Part shown: positions 21,981 through 50,885 of the stretch, piece by piece
How positions within the stretch are numbered: position 1 is the first letter of the stretch
Layout of the letters: each line of letters begins with the position of its first letter
NCBI GenBank assembly: GCA_031372565.1
Contig: JANMLN010000181.1
Span: 1-58,610, forward strand
Reading direction: 5' to 3'
Length of the DNA stretch: 58,610 bases
From: Gemmatimonadota bacterium
Lineage (GTDB): Bacteria; Gemmatimonadota; Gemmatimonadetes; Gemmatimonadales; Gemmatimonadaceae
Notes under the pieces: model-generated
Told to the model about the DNA's origin: nothing
Database searches by the model: none
What the model saw: the letters and a program-made list of their open reading frames with translations, nothing else
Translations under genes and position numbers: made by a program

Positions 21981-22187
21981 CGCCCGCCCGGCGCCGAGGC
22001 GCTTGAGCCCCACCGCCCGGGCTCCGTCACCCGAGGGGTACCGGCATCCTGGTGGAATGCCGCCCCCCGGACAGCCAACCCTTGGCCCGCGGCGGTTGTC
22101 TCCAAGGGTAGCCCGGGGCGAGATTTCACGGTTTGTGTGCCAGACTCCGGGGGCTCCCCCCGCCTGCTCGCCGACCCGACGCCTCAG

Positions 22188-24497
22188 ATGACCGCACCCC
22201 GCGCCACCGAGCTCGATCTCCGACCGTCCTATCTCGCAGCAGGCATCGCGGCCCTGGCCGTGCTGCTGCTGTATCTCGTGACCCTCGCCCCGTCCACCGC
22301 GATGTGGGACACGAGCGAGTACATCACGGCGGCGTACGTGCTCGGCCTGCCGCATCCGCCGGGCAACCCCTTCTTCGTGCTGATCGGCCGGGTGGCCTCC
22401 ATCCTGCCAATCGCGCCCACGGTTGCCACGCGCATCAACGTGCTGGCGGCCCTCGCGAGCGCCGTGTCAGCCGGCATGTGGTTCCTGATCACCGAACGGG
22501 TGCTCGTCAGCTGGTTTGCGCAGAAGTGGACGCGCCTCGTCATCGCGAGTGTCTCCGCCGTCATCGGTTCCACGGCGTTCACGGTGTGGAACCAGTCGGT
22601 CGTGAACGAGAAGGTGTACACGATCTCGCTCGTCGGTCTCGCCGTCTGCTCGTGGCTCACGGTGCGGTGGTGCGACGAGCCCGATGGTCGCAAGGCAGAT
22701 CGGATCCTCGTGCTCGTGGCCTACCTCTGCGGCCTGGGCTACACGAACCACATGGCCGGCATGTTGGCTGGCCCGGCCGTGGCCATCGCGGTCCTCGTGC
22801 GCCGTCCGCGCACCGTGCTCCGCTGGAAGCTGCTCCTCGCCATCCTCGGCGCGATTCTCCTCGGCGGGTCCGTCTTCGCCACGCAGCCCATCCGCGCCGC
22901 GCACAATCCGGCCCTCAATGAGGGCGACCCGACCGGCTGTCGTGCCGGCCTCAAGCTGGACTGCACGTTCAGCAAGGGGACGTACGACGCCTTCATGTAC
23001 AACTTCAACCGCGGCCAGTACGGCAAGCCGGAACTCGGCACGCGGCAGGCCCCGCTCTCGGCACAAGTCGGGATGTGGTGGCTCTACTTCAAGTGGCAGT
23101 GGTGGCGTGATGGCGACGGTGCGTCGCTGGGCATCCAGACCACGCTGGCCGTCATCTTCCTGCTGCTCGGTTTGCTGGGCGGCTACGTGCACTGGCAACG
23201 GGACCGACGAAGCTTCTCGTTCTTCGGGCCGTTGATGTTCACGCTGACGTTGCTGCTCATCTACTACCTCAACTTCAAGTACGGCGCGTCGCAGTCGCCG
23301 GAGCTGCAGGACTCGGTCAATCGCGAAGTCCGCGATCGTGACTACTTCTACCTCTGGTCCTTCTCGGCGTGGAGCGTCTGGGCTGCGCTGGGCCTCGCCT
23401 TCGTGTGGGAGACGGTCTCCGAGCTCGCCCAGAGCGAGACGGTCGTCGTCGGGCGCGAGTCGATCAGCAATCCGACCAGGCGTGGATGGATGATGGGACT
23501 GCCGGTGCTGCTCATCGCGGCCGTTCCGGCATTCGGCAATGCCAAGTGGGCCTCACGCGCCGGCGAGACCGATACGCGCGACTTCGCGCACGACATCCTC
23601 AATTCAGTCGAGCCGTACGGTGTGCTGGTCACCGTCGGCGACAACGACACCTTCCCGCTCTGGTACGCGCAGGAAGTCGAGGGGATTCGCAAGGACGTGG
23701 TGGTAGCCAACACCTCGCTGCTCAATACCGAGTGGTACACGCGGCAGATCATCCGTCGCCCGGTCTACGAGTACGACGCCAAGGCGGGCCCCGCCATCTA
23801 TCGCGACAAGTCGTGGCCCAAGCCCGCGCGCGGGCCGATCAACATGACGCTCGACGATGCCGACAAGGTGCCGCTCTACATGGAGCTGCAGCAGCCGCAG
23901 CTGTTCACCAAGGGCGACCTCACGGCCACCATCGATCCCAAGACGCTGCAGCACGGGGTGCTCGAGCGCGCGGACGTGTTCGTGCTCCGCATGATCCAGG
24001 ACGCGTTCCCCGAGCGCCCGCTCTACTTCGCCCGCACCTCGGCTGGCTACGGCGAGTCACTCGGCCTTGGCCCCTACCTCCTCACGCAGGGGCTCGCGCG
24101 CAAGCTGAGCGCCACGGCGCTCAAGGCGTCCAAGGACACGCTGCAGCTGCCCGGGCAGGGGTTTCTCGACGTGAAGCGCACCAAGGACCTCTGGAAAGAT
24201 GTCTTTGTCGGGCAGGCGGCGATCATCCGGAAGGGCCATTGGGTGGACCGTCCCTCCGTCGGCATCCCGTATCTGTACGTCTCGACGGGCCTGCTCCTGA
24301 CCGAAGCGCTGCGCTTGAACGGCGATGGCGCTTACGCGCCGAACGTGCTCGAGACCACGCGCAAGCTGGCCAAGGCAACGGGGCTCGGCGACATCGCGCC
24401 GGAACCGGTCGACGCGCCGGTCCCGTTGGCACCCTCGGGCGACACGGCACTCAAGCAGAAGGCGGGCAAGGCTGCCCCGAAGCCCGGCAAGCCGTAG
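22188..24497 (+). CDS. DUF2723 (TMEM260-like, GT-C) membrane protein
   Basis: WDTSEY..HPPGNP, many transmembrane helices, EVRDRDYF, TVGDNDTFPLWYAQEVEG..DV..NTSLLNT.WY. Confidence 0.85.
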   Translation: MTAPRATELDLRPSYLAAGIAALAVLLLYLVTLAPSTAMWDTSEYITAAYVLGLPHPPGNPFFVLIGRVASILPIAPTVATRINVLAALASAVSAGMWFLITERVLVSWFAQKWTRLVIASVSAVIGSTAFTVWNQSVVNEKVYTISLVGLAVCSWLTVRWCDEPDGRKADRILVLVAYLCGLGYTNHMAGMLAGPAVAIAVLVRRPRTVLRWKLLLAILGAILLGGSVFATQPIRAAHNPALNEGDPTGCRAGLKLDCTFSKGTYDAFMYNFNRGQYGKPELGTRQAPLSAQVGMWWLYFKWQWWRDGDGASLGIQTTLAVIFLLLGLLGGYVHWQRDRRSFSFFGPLMFTLTLLLIYYLNFKYGASQSPELQDSVNREVRDRDYFYLWSFSAWSVWAALGLAFVWETVSELAQSETVVVGRESISNPTRRGWMMGLPVLLIAAVPAFGNAKWASRAGETDTRDFAHDILNSVEPYGVLVTVGDNDTFPLWYAQEVEGIRKDVVVANTSLLNTEWYTRQIIRRPVYEYDAKAGPAIYRDKSWPKPARGPINMTLDDADKVPLYMELQQPQLFTKGDLTATIDPKTLQHGVLERADVFVLRMIQDAFPERPLYFARTSAGYGESLGLGPYLLTQGLARKLSATALKASKDTLQLPGQGFLDVKRTKDLWKDVFVGQAAIIRKGHWVDRPSVGIPYLYVSTGLLLTEALRLNGDGAYAPNVLETTRKLAKATGLGDIAPEPVDAPVPLAPSGDTALKQKAGKAAPKPGKP

Positions 24498-24521
24498 CGG
24501 ACAGTTCGCTGTCTGGTACGC

Positions 24522-24560
24522 GAACGGCCGGTCCCTGCACAGCAGGGGCCGGCCGTTTCG
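24522..24560. terminator. Probable bidirectional terminator hairpin between convergent genes
   Basis: GAACGGCCGGTCCCTGC-ACA-GCAGGGGCCGGCCGTTT, a ~17-bp stem. Confidence 0.7.
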
Positions 24561-24600
24561 CTTGACGCGTACCTCGTGTGGTTGATACAGCGCGGGTCGC

Positions 24601-25914
24601 TCAGCCTCCCGTCGCTTCCACCGGGTGCGCTCGCTTGAACAGGAGCAGAAAGAAGCCGCTCAACACCGTGAGCGTGCCGTAGAGCGCCGTCATCGGCTTG
24701 TCGATCGTGACGTACGTCAGCGTCCAGACCGACAGCGCGATGAAGATGATCGGCGTCACTGGATAGCCCCACGTCCGGTAGGGGCGCGGCAGGTTGGGTT
24801 CTCGCACGCGCAACACGATGACACCCAGCACCACCAGCAGCGAGAAGAGATTCATCGTGAAGCCGGCGTAGGTGAGCACCGGCTCGAATGCCCCCGTCAG
24901 GATGAACGCGAGCGCGATGACTTGTTGCGCCACGAGTGCGTTGCGTGGCTGGCCGCTCGTCGTTCGGCGCGCGAACACGGCCAGCGCCGGCAGATCCTCG
25001 CCGATCACCTGCGTGATGCGCGGCCCGGCGAACGTCATCGCGCTGATGCTCGACAGCAGCACGAGCGCGATCATGATGTTCATCGCCTTGCCGCCAGCCG
25101 CGCCGAGCATCGCGGTGGCGGCGAGGCCGCCGACCTCCACCTTTCCTGCCAGCTCCGCCATGGGCACGGCGCGCAGAAAAGTCCAGTTGAGCGCGAGGTA
25201 CATCGCCGTGACGATCAGCGTTGCGTGCAGCATCGCGCGCGGGAGGGTGCGCTGCGGGTCGCGCATCTCGCCCACCATGTAGGCTGCCGCGTTCCATCCC
25301 GAAAAGGCATAGCTCACGTAGATGAGCGACACGGCGAACGAACCGGTCGGGAGCTCGGCCCAGGCTGCGGCCGTTGGCGCGAACGAGACATTCGTCCGCA
25401 CCGGAAGCGCGAGGCCGACCGCCACGAATCCGACGATGAGCACGACTTTGAGGCCGGTGGTGCTCACCTGGAACAGCTCGGCCAATCGGAGCGACACGGC
25501 ATGAATGCCGCTGATGGCCAGCAGCGCCATGACCGCGATCACCCGCGGGCTGCCCGGCACGATGCCCTGCAGGAAGGTGCCCAGCGCGATACAGGCGAGC
25601 GCAATCGGCGCCGCGTGCGCCACCGTGATCTCCGACCAGCCAGCCAACAGGCCCAGCACCGGGTGGTAGACGCGCCGCAGGAAGTGATACTCGCCCCCCG
25701 AGCGCGGAATCGTGGCCCCCAACTCGGCGTACGAGAGCGCGCCACACAGGGCCACCAGTCCGCCGACCGCCCAGATGGCCAGCAACGCGAACCCCGAGTG
25801 CGTCCCCAACACCTGGAAACCCAGCGACGTGAACACGCCGGTACCGACCATGTCGGCGACCGCAACAGAAACAGCGGTCAGGTATCCGATCGACCTGGGG
25901 CCGCCCGTCTTCAC
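24601..25914 (-). CDS. APC family amino acid permease
   Basis: DMVGTGVF, GALSYAELG..PRSGGEY, YAFSGWN, about 12 transmembrane helices; GTG start overlaps the upstream stop. Confidence 0.9.
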   Translation of the reverse strand: MKTGGPRSIGYLTAVSVAVADMVGTGVFTSLGFQVLGTHSGFALLAIWAVGGLVALCGALSYAELGATIPRSGGEYHFLRRVYHPVLGLLAGWSEITVAHAAPIALACIALGTFLQGIVPGSPRVIAVMALLAISGIHAVSLRLAELFQVSTTGLKVVLIVGFVAVGLALPVRTNVSFAPTAAAWAELPTGSFAVSLIYVSYAFSGWNAAAYMVGEMRDPQRTLPRAMLHATLIVTAMYLALNWTFLRAVPMAELAGKVEVGGLAATAMLGAAGGKAMNIMIALVLLSSISAMTFAGPRITQVIGEDLPALAVFARRTTSGQPRNALVAQQVIALAFILTGAFEPVLTYAGFTMNLFSLLVVLGVIVLRVREPNLPRPYRTWGYPVTPIIFIALSVWTLTYVTIDKPMTALYGTLTVLSGFFLLLFKRAHPVEATGG

Positions 25915-26819
25915 ACCTCGGCGCGCGCGGGCTCCCGCTCGATCGCGGGAGCGTCAGGCCCGGCGGAGGCAACGGGCGCCGGTGCAGGCGCGACACCGTC
26001 AGCGGCGTGCTTCGCGTCGTACAGCGCCTGCTGCGTCTCGGCATGCGCCCGGAACGCGTACGCGTGCTGCTTGAAGTACGCGGCACCGTTGCCGAGCGGG
26101 AAGTGCTCGTCCTCGAGCCCGTAGGCCACGGCCTTGCGCGTCTTCCGATCCGGGAAGAACGCCGTGCCGAACAGCCAGTCCCACAGCGCGAACTTGGTGC
26201 CGAAGTTCGTGTCATACGCTTCGCGATCGAGCGCATGGTGCCAGCGATGCATCTCCGGCCCGTTGAAGACGTACTGGAACACGCCGAGGCGCACGTCGAT
26301 GTTGGCGTGGATGAACATCCCCCACACCGCGCTGATCGTGCCCTTGATGATCGGCACTTCTGGCGAGGCACCGAGCAGGATCATCGGCGCGAACTCGATG
26401 GTCTGGTTGATCAGGATCTCGAGCGAATGCGAGCGCACCCCCGAGAGCCAATCGACATTGGGCGTCGAGTGATGCGCCTCGTGCAGCCGCCAGAACCACT
26501 TGTTCCCGTGCTGGAAGCGGTGGAAGCAGTAGATGTAGAGGTCGTGCGAGACGAGGAAGAGCAGCACCTGCGTCCAGACCGGCCAGTGGCCGATCAGGGA
26601 GTGGGATTCCCAGGTGGTGTGGCCGTTCAGCCAGACGAGCACGCTCGTGATGATCACGCCCAGCGCATAACTCTGCAGCAGGCAGTAGCCGACGAAGTCC
26701 GTCCAGAAACCCTCGCGAAAGAGTTGCTGATCGGCGTTGTACGGCCAGCGCCGCTCCGCGAGGAGCATCGCCAGCGCGCTGACCGTCATGATGCCAAGGG
26801 ACAGGACCTGCAGGTTCAT
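25911..26819 (-). CDS. Sterol desaturase/fatty acid hydroxylase family di-iron membrane enzyme
   Basis: His boxes FHRFQH, LHEAHHS, FIHAN, MHRWHH; NFG...WDWLFGT. Confidence 0.9.
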   Translation of the reverse strand: MNLQVLSLGIMTVSALAMLLAERRWPYNADQQLFREGFWTDFVGYCLLQSYALGVIITSVLVWLNGHTTWESHSLIGHWPVWTQVLLFLVSHDLYIYCFHRFQHGNKWFWRLHEAHHSTPNVDWLSGVRSHSLEILINQTIEFAPMILLGASPEVPIIKGTISAVWGMFIHANIDVRLGVFQYVFNGPEMHRWHHALDREAYDTNFGTKFALWDWLFGTAFFPDRKTRKAVAYGLEDEHFPLGNGAAYFKQHAYAFRAHAETQQALYDAKHAADGVAPAPAPVASAGPDAPAIEREPARAEV

Positions 26820-26835
26820 GGGGAGTGACCCGGTA

Positions 26836-27744
26836 TCAGTTTGATTCCTTCGGCTTGCGCAGGCTCTCGCGCTTCTTCATTTCCGACTCGTACACGTGCT
26901 TCACGCCGTCGCCCAAGGCTTCCTCGATCGTGCGGATGTCGCGCACGAGTCGCTCGAGCCCGACAATCTCCACCGAGGCGGCCTGGTCCGAGCCCCACAG
27001 CGCGCGATCGACCGTCACGTGCCGCTCCACGAAGCTCGCCCCGAGCGCGACGGCCACTTCCGTGGTCGCCAATCCGACCTCGTGGCCGCTGTATCCGATC
27101 GGCGTGCTGGGGAACTGTGCGCGCAACGTCTGGATCATGCTGAGGTTGAGTTCCTTCGGCGGGCACGGATACGACGACGTCGAGTGCGCGATCAGCAGGT
27201 TCTGCAGGCCAATCGCCTTGATGGCATCGTCGATCTCCTCCTGCGTGCTCATGCCGGTCGAGATGATGAGCGGACGCCCCGTGTCGATCATCGCCTTCAG
27301 CAGCGGCCAATCCGTGAGCGACGCCGATGCCGCCTTGTAGAACGGCGGGTTGAACTGCTCCATGAACGCCACCGACTCCTCGTCCCAGCACGACGCGGTC
27401 CAGTCGATGCCCTTCTCGCGACAGTAGCGGTCGATCTCGGCGTATTCGTCCTTGCCGAACTCCACCTTGTGGCGGTAGTCGATGTACTTCATCCGCCCCC
27501 ACGGCGTGTCGCGCTCCTTGTCCCACTCGCTCTTGGGGGTGCAGATCTCGGGAGTGCGCTTCTGGAACTTGGCGCAGTCGGCTCCGGCATGCACGGCCCC
27601 GTCGATGATCTGCTTGGCCAGCTCCATCGAGCCGTTGTGATTGATGCCGATCTCGGCGATCACGTAGCAGGGCTCTCCGTCCCCCATGGCCTTGCCGTTC
27701 TTGAGGGCGACGTGACGGGCCGGCGTGTTGGTCGAGGAAGTCAT
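26836..27744 (-). CDS. NeuB-family PEP-condensing ulosonate synthase (short form lacking the SAF domain)
   Basis: IAEIGINHNG, KFQKR, IISTGMS, HSTSSYP, IGYSGHE, ERHVT, GSDQAAS; about 302 aa. Confidence 0.92.
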   Translation of the reverse strand: MTSSTNTPARHVALKNGKAMGDGEPCYVIAEIGINHNGSMELAKQIIDGAVHAGADCAKFQKRTPEICTPKSEWDKERDTPWGRMKYIDYRHKVEFGKDEYAEIDRYCREKGIDWTASCWDEESVAFMEQFNPPFYKAASASLTDWPLLKAMIDTGRPLIISTGMSTQEEIDDAIKAIGLQNLLIAHSTSSYPCPPKELNLSMIQTLRAQFPSTPIGYSGHEVGLATTEVAVALGASFVERHVTVDRALWGSDQAASVEIVGLERLVRDIRTIEEALGDGVKHVYESEMKKRESLRKPKESN

Positions 27745-28280
27745 CAGGCGTGCCTGGAGGTGGAGGGCCGCAGCGCGGCCGGAGGGAATTGGGCGGCGAG
27801 CACCAGCTCCGCGAATTCGCGGAACGCGCCATGGCCGCCCGTGCGGCGGCACACGTGGTGCACCCGGTCGAGCACGAGCGGCTCTGCATCCGCAGGAGCC
27901 GCGGCGAGCCCGACGGCGTCGAGCACGTCGAGGTCGTTCACGTCATCGCCGATGTAGGCGATCTGGTCCATGGTCAGTCCGCGTGCCGCGGCAATCGCCA
28001 CCACCGCGGGCAGCTTGTCGCGCACGCCCAGATGCAGTTCGTCGATCTTGAGCTTCTCTGCGCGCTTGGCCACGATGGCCGACTGTTCGCGCGTGATGAT
28101 GCCGGTGGGAATCCCACCGATCACGCGCAACCGCTCGACGCCCATGCCGTCGCGCAGCGAGAACCGCTTCATCTGCTCACCCTCGGCCGACACGTACACG
28201 CCGGCATCGGTCAGCACGCCATCGCAATCGGTCAGCACGAGCTGCACCCGTTCGGCACGCGCGCGGACGTCCGCGGTCAT
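27744..28280 (-). CDS. KdsC-type HAD phosphatase (KDO-8-P/KDN-9-P phosphatase-like)
   Basis: DCDGVLTD, FSLRDGMG, YIGDDVND, GGHGAFRE. Confidence 0.9.
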   Translation of the reverse strand: MTADVRARAERVQLVLTDCDGVLTDAGVYVSAEGEQMKRFSLRDGMGVERLRVIGGIPTGIITREQSAIVAKRAEKLKIDELHLGVRDKLPAVVAIAAARGLTMDQIAYIGDDVNDLDVLDAVGLAAAPADAEPLVLDRVHHVCRRTGGHGAFREFAELVLAAQFPPAALRPSTSRHA

Positions 28281-28291
28281 CGGGGCCTCGG

Positions 28292-29116
28292 CTACCACGC
28301 GGTGAAGCCTCCGTCCACGACCACCGTCGATCCGGTCACGTAGCGCGAGGCATCACTCGCGAGAAAGAGCAGCGCGCCGCGGTAGTCGTTGGGCTGCGCC
28401 ATCCGACCGAGCGGCGTGCGCTTGCCGTAGTTCTGCAGGAACCAGTCTTCCTGTCCCGCTTCGACGCCCCCGGGCACGAGCGTGTTGACGCGCACGCCGG
28501 CCGGGCCCCAGTACGCCGCCAGGAAACGCGTGAAGGCCAGCACGGCCCCCTTGCTCGTCGGGTACGCCGGCGACTTGTACATCGTGCGCGTGCCATCAGG
28601 CTTCACGTACAAGCTCTGGTCCGGCCCGACCAATCCGTAGGTGCTCGACACGTTGATGATGCTGCCGCGCCCCGCGGCCGCCATGTCGGCGCCGAGAATC
28701 CGGCTCGGGAGAAAGACGCCGGTGGTATTCACGTCGATCACCCGCCGCCACTCCTCGAGCGGAAAGTTCTCGAACTTCGTGGCCTCGACGCCCATCGTGC
28801 GCGTCTCGACCTTGTCGTTGATCGCGCCATTGTTGACGAGCACGTCGAGGCGGCCGAACCGGCTGCGCAGCGTGTCACGCAGCGCGGTCAGGTCGGCTTC
28901 ACTCGTGATGTCGGCGGTCACGGCGAGCGGCGTGGCGCCGCCCCCGGCCGCGAGCGCGGCCGTGGCCGCGTCCAGCAACTGCCGGTTCATGTCCACCAGC
29001 ACCACGGTGGCGCCCGCGTCGCGGAGCGCCTCGCAGTGATGGCGGCCAATCAACCCGGCCGCACCGGTGACGACGGCGACCTGGCCGTCGAGCGAAAACT
29101 CGGTGGCCACGCTCAC
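28292..29116 (-). CDS. Short-chain dehydrogenase/reductase
   Basis: TGAAGLIG, LVNNG, SSTYG, YPTSK (YxxxK), VRVNTLVPGG. Confidence 0.92.
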   Translation of the reverse strand: MSVATEFSLDGQVAVVTGAAGLIGRHHCEALRDAGATVVLVDMNRQLLDAATAALAAGGGATPLAVTADITSEADLTALRDTLRSRFGRLDVLVNNGAINDKVETRTMGVEATKFENFPLEEWRRVIDVNTTGVFLPSRILGADMAAAGRGSIINVSSTYGLVGPDQSLYVKPDGTRTMYKSPAYPTSKGAVLAFTRFLAAYWGPAGVRVNTLVPGGVEAGQEDWFLQNYGKRTPLGRMAQPNDYRGALLFLASDASRYVTGSTVVVDGGFTAW

Positions 29117-30444
29117 TTCGTGTTCGGCTTCATGTTGAAGTTGCTCGTGCGGCGGAACACCGGCTCCACGAGCTCCCCCTGTACCAGCCCCTTCACGTCG
29201 CCCGCCGTCACGGCATCCTTGAGTACCGAGAGTGACTCACGGTACGCGCTGAGCAGGTGTGCGACCTCGCGCTCCCCGTGCGAGAAGCTCATGGCGTGCG
29301 CCCCCGTCCAGAGCACGCCGCGACGGATCAGCTCCTGCTGGAGCAGACTCTTGAGCTCGAGCGGATTGCCCGCCTTGGCGTCGAGCACCACCGCCGAGCG
29401 CGTCGCTTGTCCGACGCACTTGGTCCACTCGCTGATCCCCAGCTCCGCCGCGATCGCGTTGTAGCCGTCCTTCACGAGCGTCCCCTGCTTCCACAGGAAC
29501 TCCGGCACCTTCTTCTCCACCAGTTCGAGCATCGTGGCCTTGGCCGCGGCAAGCGACAGCGCCTCGCCGCCGAACGTCGTGAAGAAGAAGGTCTCCTTCT
29601 CGAGCACCTGCATCAGGTCCGCGCGCCCGCAAATCACCGAGAGCGGCATCCCGTTCGCGATCGCCTTGCTGAACGTGGCCAGATCCGGCGTCACGCCGTA
29701 GTGCTGCTGCGCGCCACCCGTCGACATGCGGAACCCGGTCCACATCTCGTCGAAGATCAGCACGATGCCCTTCTCGGTGCACTTGGCGCGCAGGTGCTCG
29801 AGGAAGCCCGGCTTCGGCTCCTCGAACACGGTCGGCTCGAGGATCACGGCCGCGATGTCGTCGTCCAGCGACGCGTCAAACGACTCGACCGAGTTGTAGT
29901 CGAAGGTGAACGACAGGTCCTTGACGGCCTGCGGAATGCCCTTGCTGCGATCGGTGACCGCGATGTAGAAGTCGTGCCACCCGTGATAGCCGCAGCACAG
30001 CACCTTGTTGCGCCCGGTGTTCGCGCGCGCAATGCGCACGGCCACGGCGGTCGCGTCCACGCCGGTCTTGCTGAAGCGCACGGCCTCGGCGCACGGCACG
30101 AGGTCGCGCACCATCTCCGACACTTCCACCTCGAGCGGATGCATCAGCGAGAACGTGATGCCGTCGGCCAGCTGCGCCTTGATTGCGTCATCGACGCGGT
30201 CGTAGCAGTAGCCCAGCACCAGCGGCCCGATCCCCATGCTCATGTCGAGGAATTCGTTGCCGTCCACGTCGGTGAGCCACGCCCCCTTCCCCTTGCGGGC
30301 GTACTTGGGCGCGACCCCCTTGACGTACTGTCCCGGGCCCTTGGCGAGCGTCTGCGTCCCGGCGGGGATCAATCCCACCGAGCGGTTCCAGATCTTGTCC
30401 GACTCCGTGATCGTCGGGAGCGGAATCATCGTTGGCGCGGCCAT
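29113..30444 (-). CDS. Class III PLP aminotransferase (glutamate-1-semialdehyde aminomutase-like)
   Basis: DVDGNEFLD, GYHGWHD, IFDEMWTGFR, PDLATFSKAIANG, TTFGG. Confidence 0.92.
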   Translation of the reverse strand: MAAPTMIPLPTITESDKIWNRSVGLIPAGTQTLAKGPGQYVKGVAPKYARKGKGAWLTDVDGNEFLDMSMGIGPLVLGYCYDRVDDAIKAQLADGITFSLMHPLEVEVSEMVRDLVPCAEAVRFSKTGVDATAVAVRIARANTGRNKVLCCGYHGWHDFYIAVTDRSKGIPQAVKDLSFTFDYNSVESFDASLDDDIAAVILEPTVFEEPKPGFLEHLRAKCTEKGIVLIFDEMWTGFRMSTGGAQQHYGVTPDLATFSKAIANGMPLSVICGRADLMQVLEKETFFFTTFGGEALSLAAAKATMLELVEKKVPEFLWKQGTLVKDGYNAIAAELGISEWTKCVGQATRSAVVLDAKAGNPLELKSLLQQELIRRGVLWTGAHAMSFSHGEREVAHLLSAYRESLSVLKDAVTAGDVKGLVQGELVEPVFRRTSNFNMKPNTK

Positions 30445-30463
30445 GCCGTCAGTCCTCGCGAAG

Positions 30464-31381
30464 TCAGTGAGTCGGAACGGCCGCGAGCGCGGCCGTGATG
30501 CGGGTGGCGATCTGCGGTCCGCTCATCCCCTCGGCCTCGATGGCCGGACCGAGCAGCGTCGGCGTGAACCACCTGCCGTCGAACGCGATCGAGAGGTGAT
30601 GCGCCATCACGCGATGCTTGAGCAGCACTTCGGCGACGATCGAGCCGAGCCCGCCGGTGGCAAAGTGGTCTTCCACGGTCACGAGCAGCTTGGTGCCGCG
30701 CGCGGCGCGCACGATCGCGGCTTCGTCGATCGGCTTCGGGGTGCGCACGTTGACGAAGTGCACCGAGTGACCGGCGGCCGTGAGCAGCTCCATGGCTTCG
30801 TGCGCCTCCTTGGCGAGGGCGCCGTACGTCAGGATCCCGATGTCGGTACCCTCGCGGACGACTTCCGCCTGCCCGAGCACGAACGGCGCGGGGGTCCACG
30901 CGGCCGGGCGCGGGTTGTAGCGCATGTACCACGGGCTCGGATCCGCGAGGATGTGCGGGAAGCCCAGCAGCAGGTCATCGACCGAGGCGGGGGCGAACAC
31001 CTTCATGTTCGGCAGCCCGCGCATGATCGCAATGTCCTCGATCGCCTGGTGCGTGGGCCCGTTCGCATCGGACAGGATCCCCGGAACCCAGCCGACGATC
31101 TTCACCGGCAGGTTCGGGATGCACACATCATTGCGGATGAACTCGTACGGACGGAAGACGGCAAACGTCGCCAGTGCGTGGCACACCACCACGCGACCGC
31201 GCAGCGCCATGCCGGCCGCCATGCCGATCATCGTCTGCTCGGTGATCCCGACGTCCAGAAAGCGCTTGCCGATCTTGGCGGGCAACCCGCGCACGGGGGC
31301 GCGATTCTCCGCCGTCATGATGATGACGCGCTCGTCCGTCTGGACAGCCTGCGCGAGGAGGTCTTCGTAAATGAGCGGCAT
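30464..31381 (-). CDS. Transketolase, C-terminal (pyrimidine-binding) subunit
   Basis: DVGITEQTMIGMAAG, GPTHQAIED, VEDHFATGGLG. Confidence 0.9.
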   Translation of the reverse strand: MPLIYEDLLAQAVQTDERVIIMTAENRAPVRGLPAKIGKRFLDVGITEQTMIGMAAGMALRGRVVVCHALATFAVFRPYEFIRNDVCIPNLPVKIVGWVPGILSDANGPTHQAIEDIAIMRGLPNMKVFAPASVDDLLLGFPHILADPSPWYMRYNPRPAAWTPAPFVLGQAEVVREGTDIGILTYGALAKEAHEAMELLTAAGHSVHFVNVRTPKPIDEAAIVRAARGTKLLVTVEDHFATGGLGSIVAEVLLKHRVMAHHLSIAFDGRWFTPTLLGPAIEAEGMSGPQIATRITAALAAVPTH

Positions 31382-31384
31382 GGG

Positions 31385-32239
31385 CTAGCGCACCATCAGC
31401 GTTTCGGATGCGAGCGCCGCCTTGGCCTCGCCATGGAGTTCCTGCATGAGCTGGGCGATCTCGTCGTGGGAGAAGTTCACGAACCACCGGTCGGCACGCT
31501 TCTCGATGCTCGGCAGCCCCTTGCCGCGCACGGTCGTCGCCACGATCACGCTCGGGCCGGGCCCCTGCCCGACCTGCGCGAACGCCTGCTCCAGCGCGTC
31601 GAAGTCATGGCCGTCGCAGCCGACCGCGTTGGCGCCGAACGCCTGGAACTTGGGGAGCAGCGGCTCGAGCGGGACCAGTTCCTCGGTGCGCACGTTCGCC
31701 TGGAACTCGTTCCGGTCCACGATGACCACGAGGTTGTCGAGCTGCTGGGCGCTGGCCACGAGCAGTCCTTCCCACATCGTCCCCTCGTTCAACTCGCCGT
31801 CGCCCACGATCACGTACACCTTGTTCGTGCCGCCGCGCAGCTTGATGTCATAGGCGATCCCCATGCTCACCGAAAGCAGATGCCCGAGCGAACCCGAGTG
31901 GAACTCGACCCCCGGAATCGCGCGATTCGGGTGCCAGTAGATCTTGTCGGTGGGCTTCAGGTGATTGGCCAGCCGCTCCTTCGGGAAGTAGCCCAACTCG
32001 GCCAGCGTGCCGTACAACGCCGGCACGTCGTGTCCCTTGGACAGCAGCAGGTAGTCCCGGTTCGGGTCCTGCAGCGTCGCGGGGCTCACCTTCAGCACGC
32101 GCGAGTACAGGTGCACGATGAGGTCGGCACAGGAGAGCGACGCCCCGAGAAAGCACCCACCATCGGTGCTCATGCGGATGCAGTGCTCGCGGACTCGGAG
32201 GGCGAGCGCAGCCAGCGACTCGCGATCGGCGATATTCAT
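31385..32239 (-). CDS. Transketolase, N-terminal (ThDP-binding) subunit
   Basis: LSKGH, SGSLGH, GDGELNEG..WE..VDRN ThDP motif; ATG at 32239. Confidence 0.9.
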   Translation of the reverse strand: MNIADRESLAALALRVREHCIRMSTDGGCFLGASLSCADLIVHLYSRVLKVSPATLQDPNRDYLLLSKGHDVPALYGTLAELGYFPKERLANHLKPTDKIYWHPNRAIPGVEFHSGSLGHLLSVSMGIAYDIKLRGGTNKVYVIVGDGELNEGTMWEGLLVASAQQLDNLVVIVDRNEFQANVRTEELVPLEPLLPKFQAFGANAVGCDGHDFDALEQAFAQVGQGPGPSVIVATTVRGKGLPSIEKRADRWFVNFSHDEIAQLMQELHGEAKAALASETLMVR

Positions 32240-33042
32240 GCGGGAGAGGGCATGCGGGTGTCGGCCGAAGTCACGGCCGTGAGTTCGTTCAGGTGGTGGC
32301 GGTACCAGTTGACGCCGTTCAAGTGTGCGTTGATCCGCATCACCTCGGGGTGTGCATCCATCCAATCAGCGATCGCGGCGGTGCTCACGTGCGGCCAGCC
32401 CGGGCGCACGCCGTCGAACACGGCGCGCAACAGCGCGAGGTCCTCGCGGTAGTCCAACACCACGCGGTGGGTGCGGGCCAGATCGCGCCCGTCGCCCCAC
32501 GCCACGTTCAAACAGCGGAACCGGCCCGGCGGGTCCCAGAACCACGGGGTCGTGTGCTCGCGGTCCATCGCGCGCGTCGCTTCGCGATGCGCGCGCTCCA
32601 GCAATGCCATCGGCACGACCTCCACGTCGTTGCCGTCCGGATGCGTCGGCGGATGCAAGTTCGACACGTAGTCCCACGCATCCGGCGCCGCCAGATACGC
32701 GCCCAGCACCTCGTCGATCACCTCGGGGCCGATCAACACGCAGTCGCTCGGGATCTTCACCACGACCTGGGCATCGAACGCTCGCGCAGCCTGCACATGG
32801 CGATCCAGCAGGTCGGTCGGGTGACCGCGCACGACCGGGACGCCCGCGGTCGCGCCGAGCTCGGCAACGGCGGCATCCGCGTCGTCGGTCGTCGTGGCAA
32901 GCACCACCGTGCCCGCGAGTGCCGACGCCCGTACGCGCTCGAGCATCCGGCTCAGCACGGGCGCGCCACCCAAATCCTCCATCACCTTCCCCGGCAGGCG
33001 CGTCGAGCCTGCGCGCGCCTGGACCACCGTCACGACGCGCAT
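32236..33042 (-). CDS. SpsF/acylneuraminate cytidylyltransferase family protein
   Basis: VQARAGSTRLPGK, ATT..D, DLLDR, REHTT, VLDYREDL; ATG at 33042. Confidence 0.88.
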   Translation of the reverse strand: MRVVTVVQARAGSTRLPGKVMEDLGGAPVLSRMLERVRASALAGTVVLATTTDDADAAVAELGATAGVPVVRGHPTDLLDRHVQAARAFDAQVVVKIPSDCVLIGPEVIDEVLGAYLAAPDAWDYVSNLHPPTHPDGNDVEVVPMALLERAHREATRAMDREHTTPWFWDPPGRFRCLNVAWGDGRDLARTHRVVLDYREDLALLRAVFDGVRPGWPHVSTAAIADWMDAHPEVMRINAHLNGVNWYRHHLNELTAVTSADTRMPSPA

Positions 33043-34049
33043 CAGGAGGCGGCTCGGCGCCAACGCTCGGTCGCGGCCTGCTCGGCGCGATCCGCCAGCT
33101 CCATACGACAGACCTCCGCGATACGCTCGGCACTGGTGCCGTCGTTCTGCATCGGCGTCATGCGGCGCAACTGCTCCACGTCGTAGTAGGAGTGGCATTC
33201 CTTTCCGAGCGCCAGCCCGACATAGACCACCGTGCTGTACTGCGTGACGAGCGCGCTGCAGTTGGCGATCATGTGGTCGGTCTTGCCCGCTTGCGTCACC
33301 ACCGCGCCGGGGAACACGTCGTGAATCTCGACCGCAGCGCGCTCGGCGTTCTCGTTGGGGTGCAGCTTGAAGACGGCCCGGCGCCCGGCCACGCGCTCCT
33401 TGGCCCACAGCAGAAACCGCTTGCGGCTGTCGAACTTGAGCGTTTCGCGCGCATCGGACGTGGCCACCAGCACGTACCCGCGATCGGGATAATCGTTGTC
33501 GAGCAGCTGCTTGCAATTGTCGAAGTTCGGAATGCCGGTCACGACGAGTCGATCGGCCGGAATCCCCTTCGCCATGAAGAAATCCCGGTACCCCTCCGAA
33601 GCCACGCAGAACTTGCGATACGCGAGCGACAGCCCCGTCGTCGACGTACTCGCGATCCAGCGCGGCAGGCCGAAATACCGCACGAGGTGGTACGCCAGGT
33701 TCTCGGGGTCGGTCATCCCCTCCTGCACCAGCACAATCGGCTTGGAGCGGATGTTGCGCTGGATGATCAGATCGGAACCCGTGACCACAAGGTCGTAGTC
33801 GTCAAGGCGGCCCCCCTCATCCACCGGCAGGCCGTGATCCCGAAGGTACGCCGCCGTCTTCAGCCGGAACTGACCGCCATGCCCAGCCACGGTGAAGTTC
33901 AACAGCCCGAGCCGGTTGAGCGCCTCGAGATACCCGTCGGTGTAGTACGGGGTGTACACGCACTCCGCCTCCGATCCCAACGCCTTCCCGACCTGATGCA
34001 GCATGCTGGTCTGGTTGATCGATCCGCCGATGAGCAGCACGCGCGGCAC
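33042..34049 (-). CDS. Conserved hypothetical protein, probable GT-B ulosonate transferase
   Basis: VLVQEG, VTGIPNFD, FKLHPNE (HP motif), STVVYVGLALGK; GTG at 34049; TGATG coupling to the cytidylyltransferase. Function is inferred. Confidence 0.6.
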   Translation of the reverse strand: MPRVLLIGGSINQTSMLHQVGKALGSEAECVYTPYYTDGYLEALNRLGLLNFTVAGHGGQFRLKTAAYLRDHGLPVDEGGRLDDYDLVVTGSDLIIQRNIRSKPIVLVQEGMTDPENLAYHLVRYFGLPRWIASTSTTGLSLAYRKFCVASEGYRDFFMAKGIPADRLVVTGIPNFDNCKQLLDNDYPDRGYVLVATSDARETLKFDSRKRFLLWAKERVAGRRAVFKLHPNENAERAAVEIHDVFPGAVVTQAGKTDHMIANCSALVTQYSTVVYVGLALGKECHSYYDVEQLRRMTPMQNDGTSAERIAEVCRMELADRAEQAATERWRRAAS

Positions 34050-34292
34050 AACTGTTCGGCGCGCGGGCGCCGAGCTGCTCCGGGTGTGGGCGGGACGTGA
34101 CAGGGTCACCAGACGGGGATCGAGGGACGAGCCGGGGAACGACGGCCAGCGGACCGGCCGGACCCCGCCTCGCGGGACCCGGCCGAACGACATCCCATAA
34201 AGATGGCCAGAATCCGACTGTTTCTCCACCCACCTGCCCGAATTGGGGTGTACCGCCACCGGCTCCCCTCCCCTACCTTGCCACGCTGTCAG

Positions 34293-34377
34293 GGAGGGCT
34301 GGCAGAACGGCTATTGCACCGGTCTTGAAAACCGGCGCCGGGCAACCGGCTTACAGGTTCGAGTCCTGTGCCCTCCG
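34293..34377 (+). tRNA. tRNA-Ser (anticodon TGA)
   Basis: Acceptor stem GGAGGGC/GCCCTCC, anticodon arm CCGGT-CTTGAAA-ACCGG, long variable arm, T arm ACAGG-TTCGAGT-CCTGT, discriminator G; CCA not encoded. Confidence 0.95.
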
Positions 34378-34406
34378 CTTCCCTGCGCCGGAGGTTCGCC
34401 GCACAC

Positions 34407-35900
34407 GTGAGTCACGCCAACGCCGTTGCCGAACAGCTGGCGCGCCTGGTCGAGGGCATCTTGCTCGACCGGCCCGAATCGCTGCGAGAACAGACGCTCG
34501 GCGCGCTCCTCACGGCCGTCCTCACGGCCGAACCCACAACGATCGCCGCTCGACAGTTGGACCTGCTGGTGAACGGCGAGGTGCTCGCGGTGCGCGGTGC
34601 CGGCATCGCCGAGTTGGCCGCGCAGCTGACCGGCCACGAAGTCGCGTCGCTCACCATCGGGCCGGACGCCTCGCCAGCAGAACTGCTGGCGGTCGCCGAG
34701 CAGCTCGCGCGTGAGCCGACGCACGGCGCCGCAGCGCACGGGTTTGCCCGGGCGCTCATTGGCGTGAGCGCCAGCGGCATTGCCGCGACCTACGACACCG
34801 ATCCGCGCCTCGCAGACCTCCTCCGCGCGGCGCCGGAGAATCTGGCCGGCATTGATCACGAGGTGCGAAGGGAGCGCGGCGCCTTGACGCTCGACGAACT
34901 CCTGGACGCCCTCGATGCCGATCCCGCGTCTGGCGAGGTGGCGCGACTCCTCGATCTGCTGGTGCCGTTTGCGGAGCGTGCCGCCGATCAAAAGGACGGC
35001 CGACAGGTCGCCGTGCTGCTCGATCGCGTGCTGAGCGCTCGTGAACGCGCTCTGAGCGACGACGTCCAGCGGATGTACACCATCGGCACGCGTCGCCTCG
35101 CGCGCGGACTGATTCTCCAACACGTGGTCCCCCTGATTGCCGGCGGTGGCGATGACGCCGCCTTGGCCGTCTCGGTCCTGCGCCGCACCGGCGAACTCGG
35201 CGCCCAACTGCTCGTCGACCGGCTGCCGGTGGCCGAGACGCGCGGCGAACGTCGCGCGCTGTTCAATATCCTCGTGCAGCTCAAGCCTCCAGCCGAGTTG
35301 ATCCGGTGGCTCCTGCTGGATCCGCGCTGGTTCGTCGTGCGCAACGGCCTGGACCTCGCCGCCGAGCTGCGTGCCAGCGAGCTCGAGGACGCCTGCATGC
35401 CATTGGTGAAGCACGAAGACGAACGCGTCCGCCGATCGGCCATTCAGGCGGTCGGCCGGTTCGCGACCCCCCGCTCCGTGCGCGCCATCGAAGGCGCGCT
35501 CGACGATCCCGCGCCGCAGGTGCGTGCCAAGGCGGCGGTCACCCTCGGCGCCTCGCGTCATCCCCGTGCGACCGAGCGACTGCTCGCGGCCATCGGTGCC
35601 GAGGCCGACCCGGAGGTGCTCACCGCGCTGCACGTGGCGCTGGGCCAGATGGGAACGCCGGAAGCGCTGCAGCAGTTGCTCGAAGGCGCGAAGCCGGGCG
35701 GGCGGCTCTTCGGTCGCAAATCGACCGCGCTCCGCGTTGCGGCCGTGCAGGGGCTGGCCTACGCGACCGCGCCCGAGGCACGCCGTGCACTCGACGCGCT
35801 CGACGACGACCGGGACCCCGAAGTGCGCGCGGCGCTCCAGCGCACCAAGCGACCCACGCGTACGACCGCAGCCCTGCCCGACCCGTTCTCCTCTCCCTGA
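34407..35900 (+). CDS. HEAT repeat protein
   Basis: Helical repeats DPRWFVVRN, HEDERVRRSAI, DPAPQVRAKAA, DRDPEVRAA. Start GTG approximate. Confidence 0.8.
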   Translation: MSHANAVAEQLARLVEGILLDRPESLREQTLGALLTAVLTAEPTTIAARQLDLLVNGEVLAVRGAGIAELAAQLTGHEVASLTIGPDASPAELLAVAEQLAREPTHGAAAHGFARALIGVSASGIAATYDTDPRLADLLRAAPENLAGIDHEVRRERGALTLDELLDALDADPASGEVARLLDLLVPFAERAADQKDGRQVAVLLDRVLSARERALSDDVQRMYTIGTRRLARGLILQHVVPLIAGGGDDAALAVSVLRRTGELGAQLLVDRLPVAETRGERRALFNILVQLKPPAELIRWLLLDPRWFVVRNGLDLAAELRASELEDACMPLVKHEDERVRRSAIQAVGRFATPRSVRAIEGALDDPAPQVRAKAAVTLGASRHPRATERLLAAIGAEADPEVLTALHVALGQMGTPEALQQLLEGAKPGGRLFGRKSTALRVAAVQGLAYATAPEARRALDALDDDRDPEVRAALQRTKRPTRTTAALPDPFSSP

Positions 35901-39518: not shown

Positions 39519-39641
39519 TGAATTTCTGCTGGTAATCAGTTGTATTGTGGACGTTCTGAGCTAACCTTTCTGGTAGGGTGGTCGAGTCAAACGGTCCTAA
39601 CGGCCGACGACTGAGAACACGCCTGTTTCCGAGAGGCGTTT

Positions 39642-40280
39642 ATGGCTGAGCAATTGACTGTCATGGAACGAAAGGTGTACCACTACCTGATCGACTTCCT
39701 GGCGGAGAACACGTATCAGCCCAGCGTCCGGGATATCGGTCGGCGGTTCCGCATCAAGAGCACCAAGACCGTCAGCGATCTGCTCCAGAGCCTGGCGGCC
39801 AAGGGGTACATCGAACGGGACGCCAGCCGTTCGCGCGGCGTGCGCTTACTGGGTGTCCAGTCCGTGGGCGGGACCCAGCCGATTCCGATCTTTGGAGAGA
39901 ATGCCGCGCTGGACCCACAGTGGCATGGTGGCGAGCCCGACGACTGGCTGACGCTCGATCGTCGCTTCATTCCGGCGGATGATGTCGTGTTCCTCAAGGT
40001 CGGCGCGGACCGGTACGCCTCGCGCGGCGTACTCGAGGGCGACTACGTGCTCGTCTCGCCGTCCGCCCGCGCCGGCGACGGTGACCTCATCTCCGCACGA
40101 GTTGGCGAGCGGATCGTCACGCGGACCCTGACCCATCGCGGCGCAACCATCGTGCTCGAGGGCGACGGCGGAGCGGCCGGCGAGATGAGCGTCGGGCCGA
40201 CCGACGACTTCCAAGTGCTCGGCGTGGTGGTCGGCGTCTGGCGCTCGAGCCACGACCAGCCGGTGACCGTCGAGCACTAG
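39642..40280 (+). CDS. LexA-like repressor with a degenerate S24 peptidase domain
   Basis: LexA winged HTH (LT..ERKVY..L..F..ENTYQPSVRDIG..F..KS..TV..L..L..KGYIER...SRG) plus a C-terminal S24-like region without recognisable catalytic residues. Confidence 0.85.
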   Translation: MAEQLTVMERKVYHYLIDFLAENTYQPSVRDIGRRFRIKSTKTVSDLLQSLAAKGYIERDASRSRGVRLLGVQSVGGTQPIPIFGENAALDPQWHGGEPDDWLTLDRRFIPADDVVFLKVGADRYASRGVLEGDYVLVSPSARAGDGDLISARVGERIVTRTLTHRGATIVLEGDGGAAGEMSVGPTDDFQVLGVVVGVWRSSHDQPVTVEH

Positions 40281-40791: not shown

Positions 40792-41180
40792 TCGTCGTCG
40801 ACGCCTCCGTCGCCGTGGAGGTGCTGCGTGCCTCCGCGGTCGGGCGGTCCCTGCTCGCCCAGCTCGGGGCGCGTGCAGAGTCGCTGCACGCGCCCGAGTT
40901 GCTCGATGTCGAAGTGCTACACGTCATGCGGCGCGACGTACGGGTCGGCATGACAACCGGGCGACGCGCCAGCGAGGCGATCGCCGACCTCGCCGCGTGG
41001 CCGCTGACCCGTCACGGGCACGGTCCGCTGCTCGAGCGCTGCTGGCAGCTGCGTGCGAACCTCTCGGCGTACGATGCCACGTACGTCGCACTCGCCGAGG
41101 GACTCGGCGCGACGCTGCTCACACGTGACGTGCGACTCGCCAACGCGCCCGGCATATCGGCCAAGGTCGAGGTGGTGTAG
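40788..41180 (+). CDS. vapC: VapC-family PIN-domain toxin
   Basis: MIVVDAS, APELLDVEV, LSAYDATYVALAE, LLTRD..LA. Confidence 0.92.
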   Translation: MIVVDASVAVEVLRASAVGRSLLAQLGARAESLHAPELLDVEVLHVMRRDVRVGMTTGRRASEAIADLAAWPLTRHGHGPLLERCWQLRANLSAYDATYVALAEGLGATLLTRDVRLANAPGISAKVEVV

Positions 41181-41277
41181 CGCGCTCCACGGCCGTGCCC
41201 CTTGCCGTGACGCCCACACACCGCGAGGATGGCGCTCAGCGATTCGGCGTCACGCCGCACTCCCCTGCCCCAGCCCG

Positions 41278-41706
41278 ATGCCCGCGCTTCGCCACACCCT
41301 CTCGCTGTCGACGACGCGCCCGATCGAGATCGTCGACCTCACGCCGCAGGTCCGCGCCTGGGTCCGCGCCAGCGGCGTGCCCGACGGGATGCTCACCGTC
41401 ATGTCACCGCACACGACCGCACGCATCACGCTCAACGAGCGCGAACGTGCGCTGCAAGCCGACATGGTGCGCTTTCTCGAGCAGTTCGCCCCCGCCGAGG
41501 CGGCGTACGGCCACAATGCCGCGCCAGTCGACGATCGGTTGAATGCCCACGCACATCTGCTTGGCCTGTTCATCAATGCGTCGGAGTCGATCCCCGTGGT
41601 GGACGGCGACCTGGTCATCGGCGCGTGGCAGTCGCTCTTCTTCGTGGAACTGGATGGGCCGCGCGCCGAGCGACAGGTGATGCTTCACCTGATGCGCGGG
41701 ACCTGA
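41278..41706 (+). CDS. yjbQ: YjbQ/UPF0047 family protein (annotated as secondary thiamine-phosphate synthase)
   Basis: [34 protein letters not shown]. Confidence 0.9.
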
Positions 41707-41710
41707 TGTC

Positions 41711-50801: not shown

Positions 50802-50885
50802 GCGAGGGGGCGTGAGGTGCCGACCCGTGGCATGCGTCGCGACGCGCCCTGACACGCCCGCATCCGTCTGACTGGGAGCGCGCGC

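Follow-up and report, generated by a model that had tools for sequence, protein, structure and literature searches.

Several described systems share parts of the locus considered here. The nearest in chemistry are the phosphate-route pathways to cytidine monophosphate (CMP)-activated 3-deoxy-D-glycero-D-galacto-nonulosonate (Kdn), set out in parts of two reports for Bacteroides thetaiotaomicron, with its Kdn-9-phosphate synthase and phosphatase, Prymnesium parvum and Streptomyces coelicolor (PMC6200933, PMC13011467), together with the Streptomyces cluster SCO4873-SCO4882 for a teichulosonic acid, a polymer of Kdn, covered in part of the second (PMC13011467). We analysed a 58,610-nucleotide stretch from a Gemmatimonadota bacterium (assembly GCA_031372565.1, contig JANMLN010000181.1, positions 1 to 58,610; hereafter the window), in which ten consecutive genes, G1 to G10, occupy the minus strand from 34049 down to 24601. 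We put at roughly one half the probability that G1-G9 build a sialic-acid-like sugar, activated with CMP and bearing an amine, and link it to a membrane lipid. We class the operon as a variant of the phosphate-route CMP-Kdn-type pathway with amine tailoring, an optional step by a thiamine diphosphate (ThDP) enzyme and a probable lipid acceptor. A search of full-text literature, with subscription journals largely outside its scope, returned no paper describing this gene set, and the G1-G9 module is apparently unstudied.

The operon resembles the phosphate-route CMP-Kdn systems in having a NeuB-family synthase, a KdsC-type phosphatase and a cytidylyltransferase and in lacking NeuC, so that the Kdn-type core named in the original prediction is indeed present. 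It differs from them in adding a short-chain dehydrogenase (SDR), a class-III aminotransferase, a ThDP enzyme, a GT-B protein of the G1 type and a membrane hydroxylase. The core enzymes themselves also stand apart: G7 scores under the cut-off of the Kdn-9-phosphate phosphatase model NF058599 (154.2 versus 180), G8 falls under the NCBIfam equivalogs for NeuB (TIGR03569, 240.4 versus 399.65) and PseI (TIGR03586, 191.5 versus 340.25), and the Streptomyces NeuB proteins lie outside the clade of the operon sequences.

Two further pathways share its logic. In Shewanella, the amine of the 3-deoxy-D-manno-octulosonic acid (Kdo) derivative Kdo8N is installed by the oxidase KdnB and the aminotransferase KdnA. 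The route proposed for the operon follows the same order of events, oxidation of a hydroxyl on the finished ulosonic acid and then transamination, but the oxidoreductase of the operon is an SDR and not an iron-containing alcohol dehydrogenase (Fe-ADH); the Chlorobiaceae do carry an Fe-ADH, two genes from G1. The aminoshikimate pathway of ansamycin producers, which leads to 3-amino-5-hydroxybenzoate (AHBA), uses an oxidoreductase, an aminotransferase, a phosphatase, a split transketolase and a phosphoenolpyruvate (PEP)-condensing synthase to make an amino-ulosonic acid phosphate. The operon shares this whole set; however, the PEP-condensing enzyme of the AHBA pathway is a relative of DAHP synthase rather than of NeuB, and that pathway has no CMP activation, transferase or membrane enzyme.

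The ten genes, as defined by open reading frame (ORF) listing and by codon-position and third-position G+C (window G+C 65-71%), are as follows.

G1, 33042..34049, minus strand: soluble GT-B protein with QEG and HP motifs, without a Pfam family; meets G2 at TGATG (1-nt overlap)
G2, 32236..33042, minus strand: SpsF-type cytidylyltransferase (CTP_transf_3); meets G3 at ATGA (4-nt overlap)
G3, 31385..32239, minus strand: N-terminal (ThDP-binding) subunit of an atypical split transketolase-like enzyme; 3-nt gap to G4
G4, 30464..31381, minus strand: C-terminal (pyrimidine-binding) subunit of the transketolase-like enzyme; 19-nt gap to G5
G5, 29113..30444, minus strand: class-III aminotransferase resembling glutamate-1-semialdehyde (GSA) aminomutase; GTGA overlap with G6
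G6, 28292..29116, minus strand: SDR whose nearest models are sugar-acid dehydrogenases; 7-nt overlap with G7
G7, 27744..28298, minus strand: KdsC-type HAD phosphatase; meets G8 at TGATG
G8, 26836..27744, minus strand: NeuB-family PEP-condensing synthase without a SAF domain; 16-nt gap to G9
G9, 25911..26819, minus strand: membrane di-iron hydroxylase/desaturase of the FA_hydroxylase family; GTGA overlap with G10
G10, 24601..25914, minus strand: APC-family permease, a genus-specific addition

All junctions are overlaps of 1-7 nt or gaps of 3-19 nt, as the original prediction of ten co-oriented, closely joined genes had it, and the families that it named, including an SDR and a class-III aminotransferase alongside the NeuB/KdsC/cytidylyltransferase core, are borne out by Pfam and NCBIfam. 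The SDR and the class-III aminotransferase are constant companions of that core. The GTG start of G1 at 34049 agrees with the starts of its homologues, with in-frame starts available up to 34259, and the ATG of G2 at 33042 overlaps the stop of G1. The operon is flanked by a convergent plus-strand gene (21981-24497) and a divergent one (34329-35900). A promoter and terminator scan of 24300-34500 gave counts at the shuffle expectation and was uninformative, and no RNA run was listed as covering the stretch. The operon is real and tightly packed, and its arrangement is far beyond chance; the order of G1-G9 recurs in other phyla.

Conservation of the module and its variants

A word-index protein search with G8 yielded 8000 scored candidates, all of them significant. 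Relatives of about 290-317 amino acids are 61-92% identical across phyla; the best 120 of the 8000, 290-317 amino acids long, are 67-92% identical and come, where a source is named, from Chlorobiota, Acidobacteriota (Thermoanaerobaculia), Bacteroidota and Gemmatimonadales. When one genome per species was scanned, 602 stretches were recovered, 598 of which encode a NeuB relative (at least 598 species-level loci). We compared the best 80 of these 598 with the ten window proteins by tblastn, and 54 of the 80 were evaluable, with 6.6 kb or more of sequence upstream of NeuB and 1 kb or more downstream. G1-G9 lie in the same order and on the same strand in 13 of the 54 evaluable loci, while six lack G7 alone, five lack G3/G4 alone, three lack G9 alone and 22 show NeuB in other contexts. 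Holders of the full order include Hymenobacter, Chitinophagales, Saprospiraceae, Ignavibacteria, a Calditrichaceae metagenome-assembled genome (MAG) and Byssovorax. The nine genes are colinear in Bacteroidota, Ignavibacteriota, Calditrichota and Myxococcota; Chloroflexota is summarised alongside these, though the Anaerolineae MAG concerned (L040) has G1-G8 without G9. Most holders belong to diderm phyla, and Promineifilum, Ardenticatenaceae and an Acidimicrobiia MAG have part of the operon too. Among 41 related genomes, the source genome included, eight have the NeuB at E <= 1e-60, and two of the same order (G025 and G039) keep G1-G9 colinear at 51-65% identity.

It had been proposed that both the hydroxylase and the permease belong with the sugar genes, and the two fared differently. 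Of the 39 loci that have G5 and 1 kb or more of sequence downstream, 33 have G9 at most 1.3 kb downstream of NeuB. G10 was found in none of the 80 loci and is confined to this genus. The conserved unit is G1-G9, a widespread and mobile module. In a quick IQ-TREE reconstruction of 79 NeuB sequences, those of operon type, of a Lewinellaceae variant and of Chlorobiaceae form one clade (SH-aLRT 97) in which phyla are intermixed, which fits block transfer between phyla; Streptomyces and sulfation-type Chloroflexota sequences fall outside it. The best explanation of these observations is a self-contained, horizontally mobile set of nine genes, extended here by the permease.

Relatives of G8 also occur in several other arrangements. 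Streptomyces loci combine a DUF6716 putative glycosyltransferase, a fusion of a cytidylyltransferase with a HAD phosphatase and, adjoining it, a NeuB 62-63% identical to G8; these loci resemble SCO4873-SCO4882 and probably match it gene by gene. Seven Chloroflexota loci (L054, L061, L065, L070, L074, L076 and L077) carry a cassette of GFO/IDH/MocA oxidoreductase, ATP sulfurylase/APS kinase, PMT-type GT-C, SDR, cytidylyltransferase-HAD fusion, NeuB, sulfotransferase and Capsule_synth-like protein, which suggests a sulfated Kdn-type glycoconjugate. Lewinellaceae and another Bacteroidota member have SDR, KdsC, NeuB, G1, an IolG-like oxidoreductase, a PseF-like cytidylyltransferase, a PhyH dioxygenase and a flippase-like protein. 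Four Chlorobiaceae genomes keep KdsC-NeuB at one site and G1 at another, and with the window proteins as queries no G5, G9 or G2 orthologue was found in them. In the other variants one candidate HP-type transferase each, Capsule_synth-like or DUF6716, fills the slot of G1, which speaks for a transferase role of G1.

The hydroxylase slot varies as well. In four loci from Chloroflexota or Actinomycetota, a 373-amino-acid GNAT-domain protein directly follows NeuB, and PhyH genes occur in two of these (L012 and L040) and in the Lewinellaceae-type loci L004 and L041; tblastn found no G9 (FA_hydroxylase) match in any of the six. The original statement that no acetyltransferase is present holds for the window and fails for these four loci. 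The GNAT/PhyH regions are the following.

L012, 1552-3599
L040, 10952-13932
L017, 1900-3021
L039, 5535-6650

Enzymes of the proposed route

In the scheme that we infer, with its substrates, order of steps, acceptor and product structure, the SAF-less synthase G8 would condense PEP and a sugar phosphate into a 3-deoxy-ulosonic acid phosphate of Kdn or Kdo type, from which the KdsC-type phosphatase G7 would remove the phosphate. The SDR G6 would then oxidise one hydroxyl, and the aminotransferase G5 would convert the carbonyl to an amine after the logic of Kdo8N. Where present, the atypical ThDP enzyme G3/G4 would contribute an optional carbon-carbon step. The SpsF-type enzyme G2 would activate the sugar with CMP, the TagF-like GT-B protein G1 would transfer it to a membrane lipid at the cytoplasmic face, and the membrane di-iron enzyme G9 would hydroxylate the lipid or its lipid-bound head group.

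G8 matches the complete NeuB profile (PF03102, 254.2 bits versus a cut-off of 22.1; residues 46-282 of 302, profile positions 1-241 of 241), has no SAF match at E <= 0.01 and stops 20 residues past the NeuB domain. G7, of the HAD family, passes the KdsC subfamily model TIGR01670 (129.7 versus 106.95). The phosphate route is supported because G7 passes this cut-off and because fusions of phosphatase and cytidylyltransferase occur in the Streptomyces and Chloroflexota relatives. G2 matches CTP_transf_3 (71.2 bits versus 22.6), its NCBIfam matches are weak ones to KdsB models, all far under cut-off, and its top match in the PDB is 6oew, annotated as a cytidylyltransferase (88 bits); Pfam also reports a weak NTP_transf_3 match.

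G6 belongs to adh_short_C2 (173.6 bits), scores 192 against a cut-off of 279 for gluconate 5-dehydrogenase and has no relative at E <= 1e-35 in a PDB sequence search. G5 passes the Aminotran_3 superfamily (162 bits) and falls under the equivalog cut-offs of the HemL and PRK06209 models (353.9 versus 486 for PRK06209, 219.7 versus 527.3 for the other). Among its relatives in the PDB are GSA aminomutases and aminoglycoside C-6' aminotransferases; amination by G5 is supported because the latter aminate sugar aldehydes.

G3 matches Transketolase_N (94.5 bits) and G4 matches Transket_pyr (90 bits) and Transketolase_C (76.9 bits). The best NCBIfam model of G4 is DXS, at 143.8 bits and under cut-off, as are all transketolase and DXS equivalog scores of the pair. 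We aligned G3 and G4, with 22 and 28 family members, to the transketolases of the source genome, which encodes a full-length enzyme (688-residue ORF) and a second split one. The pair retains the GDGE...N metal/ThDP motif, the cofactor-activating Glu of ITEQ and three His positions, including that of GPTHQ. Three of the six catalytic His positions are replaced, by a Cys (in 23 of 23 family members) and a Trp in G3 and by a Ser in G4; the N-terminal subunit of the second split transketolase (genome G000, contig C34, 14178-14912, minus strand) retains the His residues that G3 has lost. G4 further shows Asp replaced by Asn, Arg replaced by Ala or Cys, and a five-residue deletion beside the GPTHQ motif. 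In transketolase, such active-site residues bind the C1 hydroxyl of the donor and the phosphate of the substrate. Because catalytic His residues are replaced and the pair alone is missing in 5 of the 54 evaluable loci, the sequences point to an optional, non-classical carbon-carbon step, and the earlier label of split transketolase does not stand in its classical sense. The donor might be one that lacks a C1 hydroxyl, for example pyruvate.

G1, its acceptor and competing explanations

The AlphaFold model of G1, obtained from an alignment of 34 family members (mean pLDDT 91.7), has a GT-B fold. At the level of sequence, the profile of its family retrieves a single PDB entry, the TagF-like polymerase Cps3D (E 1.7e-4), over the C-terminal nucleotide-binding motif. 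Weak Glyphos_transf matches (E <= 1) occur in 26 of the 34 members, and 3 of 8 relatives examined in detail pass the cut-off of that family (PF04464, 22.1 bits). Invariant residues include QEG and HPNE, which resemble two motifs of bacterial sialyltransferases, D/E-D/E-G and HP. No hydrophobic segment was found in G1. In a protein atlas its nearest clusters are unnamed or called 'putative UDP-GlcNAc 2-epimerase', and 11% of the members of one carry Glyphos_transf. G1 has in common with TagF, TarL and the bacterial HP-motif sialyl and Kdo transferases a GT-B fold with the HP motif in the nucleotide-binding half; it differs from them in that the window protein lies under every Pfam cut-off, the family has no invariant His in the N-terminal half and the closest folds are 2-epimerases.

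The neighbours of G1 speak to its acceptor. The G1 gene of Chlorobaculum thiosulfatiphilum DSM 249 overlaps the LPG_synthase_TM gene upstream of it and is followed by a 215-amino-acid protein without a family and then by the Fe-ADH (L098, 7295-9069, minus strand), whose best models, 4-hydroxybutyrate and lactaldehyde dehydrogenases, are far under cut-off. The G1-downstream trio of this strain is kept in three Chlorobiaceae. An LPG_synthase_TM gene also ends just before G1 in two more Chlorobiaceae, in Thermochlorobacter and in four loci of Myxococcota type (L014, L030, L031 and L073); these flippase-like genes pass the TIGR00374 cut-off, and their best family is HpnL, under its own cut-off. 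The Lewinellaceae-type variant is closed by another flippase-like gene in three Bacteroidota loci, for which the second-best model after TIGR00374 is the glucosaminyl-phosphatidylglycerol flippase. In at least four lineages, adjacency alone ties G1 to membrane proteins that handle lipids. Among 1.84 billion representatives, a profile search yielded 185 G1 relatives at E <= 1e-30. Three of them, of 690-713 amino acids and standing for five sequences (JGI, ENA and Logan), have an N-terminal LPG_synthase_TM domain followed by G1, and two ENA sequences (P0132 and P0276) have a G1 domain followed by a complete stearoyl-CoA-desaturase-like protein, the G1 domain of P0276 being 52% identical to that of the window.

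MprF is built from a flippase domain and a head-group synthase. The G1 loci recall MprF, the glucosaminyl-phosphatidylglycerol systems and HpnL in that a cytoplasmic head-group enzyme adjoins, or is fused behind, an LPG_synthase_TM domain. Here, however, the synthase domain is an unrelated GT-B protein, the flippase-like proteins lie under the HpnL and glucosaminyl-phosphatidylglycerol flippase cut-offs, and the window operon has no flippase-like gene. As G1 adjoins or is fused to flippase-like membrane domains, the lipid acceptor put forward in the original prediction gains independent support, and we regard G1 as a probable CMP-dependent transferase to a lipid.

A number of observations weigh against this assignment and against the route as a whole. 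The window protein itself belongs to no Pfam family and has no Glyphos_transf match. Its long fusion relatives could be gene-calling read-throughs of adjacent genes, and the source genome has three LPG_synthase_TM genes, none of them near the operon. G7 is absent from the cluster in 6 of the 54 loci, and the four loci with a soluble PhyH-type oxygenase (L004, L012, L040 and L041) do without G9. Directly after G9, in the place taken here by the APC permease, 11 of the 80 loci carry a SugE-like gene of the small multidrug resistance (SMR) family; SMR and APC proteins carry small organic cations or amino acids, so a soluble product also fits. Structure comparison adds a further objection. UDP-GlcNAc 2-epimerases rank first in Foldseek, and in VIA-align, a structure search independent of it, NeuC (Z 17.0) and three UDP-GlcNAc 2-epimerases (15.7-16.6) precede the glycosyltransferases and polymerases PglA (14.6), TagF (14.3), TarL (13.7) and a polysialyltransferase (13.3). 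Fold ranking alone cannot separate a hydrolase or epimerase from a transferase.

G1 might accordingly be a nucleotide-sugar hydrolase or hydrolysing epimerase of NeuC or PseG type at the start of the route, with the operon only supplying a CMP-amino-ulosonate, which an unlinked transferase would use for a protein glycan or a polysaccharide of the cell surface. Besides the fold ranking, weak Epimerase_2 matches in 29 of the 34 family members speak for this. We nevertheless consider it doubtful: none of the eight relatives reaches the Epimerase_2 cut-off (PF02350; best 20.2 versus 30.6, profile about 126-265), and these matches, like those to Glyphos_transf, cover the linker and the C-terminal, nucleotide-binding half only. 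A KdsC-type phosphatase implies a sugar-phosphate substrate and needs no hydrolysing epimerase, G1 lies beside or is fused to flippase-like domains, and the conserved surroundings of the module include neither Wzx nor Wzy, no ABC exporter and no additional glycosyltransferase.

The kinship of G1 to TagF-like proteins can also be read as shared chemistry, whereby the product of G2 would be a CDP-activated (amino)polyol or sugar-acid phosphate, from which G1 would transfer a phosphate-linked head group, giving a phospholipid-like product rather than a glycoside. The sequence-level kinship of G1 is solely to CDP-alditol phosphotransferases, and the weak NTP_transf_3 match of G2 points the same way. 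Against this unlikely explanation, the CTP_transf_3 family of G2 holds KdsB and acylneuraminate cytidylyltransferases, although the KdsB matches are far under cut-off, and the dedicated phosphatase G7 argues for removal of phosphate before activation.

A soluble amine-bearing sugar acid, acting as an osmolyte, signal or antibiotic-like metabolite and moved by the SMR or APC transporter, would account for the transporter genes that follow or overlap G9. We think this very unlikely, as a free metabolite would leave CMP activation and a GT-B enzyme without a role, G9 is integral to the membrane and the transporters are not conserved (APC in 0 and SMR in 11 of the 80 loci). Decoration of lipid A or the lipopolysaccharide (LPS) core, which the original prediction had offered as one outcome, draws on the LPS setting of Kdo-like sugars and Kdo8N and on the mostly diderm holders, but is improbable as a general reading because a near-complete operon (G1-G8, with GNAT and PhyH replacing G9) occurs in Anaerolineae L040 and parts of it in Promineifilum, Ardenticatenaceae and the Acidimicrobiia MAG, the flippase-like partners are of MprF/HpnL type and not MsbA-linked, and no LPS gene is conserved nearby.

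If transfer to a membrane lipid is correct, many phyla of soil, sediment and sludge display an amine-bearing, sialic-acid-like sugar on a membrane lipid. The genes would define a new branch of ulosonic acid metabolism with a NeuB clade that lacks SAF, a re-tooled ThDP enzyme and a new family of CMP-dependent GT-B proteins, and they would be genes for unidentified amino- and glycolipids of polar-lipid profiles. Culturable holders include Hymenobacter (Hymenobacter setariae and H. negativus), Spirosoma and Chlorobaculum thiosulfatiphilum. More tentatively, the pairing of G1 with NeuB may mark a widespread class of bacterial membrane lipids, so far undescribed, whose head group is an acidic (amino)ulosonate, made by a dedicated CMP-dependent GT-B enzyme and turned outward by MprF/HpnL-like flippases. 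On this extended proposal, which we hold as possible rather than probable, the minimal Chlorobiaceae version (NeuB, KdsC, G1, flippase-like gene and Fe-ADH, as in Chlorobaculum thiosulfatiphilum DSM 249) could underlie an aminoglycosphingolipid described from Chlorobium in 1991, and the nine-gene version would add an amine and possibly a ThDP-dependent chain extension. The 1991 lipid is reportedly from Chlorobium limicola f. thiosulfatophilum and is said to contain neuraminic acid. We know of no carbon-chain extension of this kind in any ulosonic acid.

Hydroxylase, transporters and neighbouring genes

G9 matches FA_hydroxylase (107 bits versus 31), carries the His boxes HRFQH, HEAHH and HRWHH together with hydrophobic segments, and scores far under the ornithine lipid hydroxylase model OlsE (NF052566, 116.7 versus 475). 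A PDB sequence search found no relative, and the nearest clusters in the protein atlas are generic FA_hydroxylase. With a PhyH enzyme in the G9 slot, hydroxylation of the sugar fits better than that of an acyl chain, and the atom hydroxylated may lie in or near the head group. Prior modification of the lipid acyl chain by G9, as first envisaged, is weakened by the soluble dioxygenase found in that position.

Ceramide was considered as the acceptor because an aminoglycosphingolipid has been reported from a Chlorobium strain (Jensen 1991, as cited in PMC11762602). We rejected it as a general acceptor because the source genome (G000, 95.85% complete) has no serine-palmitoyltransferase (Spt)-like gene; the sole BioF/Kbl-family gene found there is a glycine C-acetyltransferase (471 versus 460). 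Spt-like enzymes are the best match, under cut-off, in two Chlorobiaceae (G043 and G044) and in the same-order genome G025.

G10 matches AA_permease_2 (166.9 bits), and its GTGA overlap with G9 suggests translational coupling. A permease about 81% identical follows G9 in two genomes of the same genus (G003 and G001), whose contigs are the two that reach that far, and none was present in the stretches fetched around the operon of the same-order genomes G025 and G039. The window's own feature is this genus-specific, putatively translationally coupled APC permease, a genus-level addition rather than the member of the conserved unit that it had been taken for. The SMR gene of other loci was tried as a lipid-sugar flippase of ArnE/F type and rejected, its best models being SugE/Qac exporters.

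The convergent gene at the 3' end of the operon (21981-24497, plus strand) encodes an 838-amino-acid TMEM260-like GT-C membrane protein (PF11028, 155.8 bits). It and the HEAT genes were rejected as members of the module, being kept beside the operon only in genomes of the same genus (two for the TMEM260-like gene). Farther along the plus strand, the window encodes a LexA-type repressor (39615-40280), a UPF0047 protein (41008-41706) adjoining a RuBisCO large-chain-like protein (41693-42940; 130.9 bits, catalytic domain only), which may be a RuBisCO-like protein, and a family-B DNA polymerase with an exonuclease domain (50853-53255).

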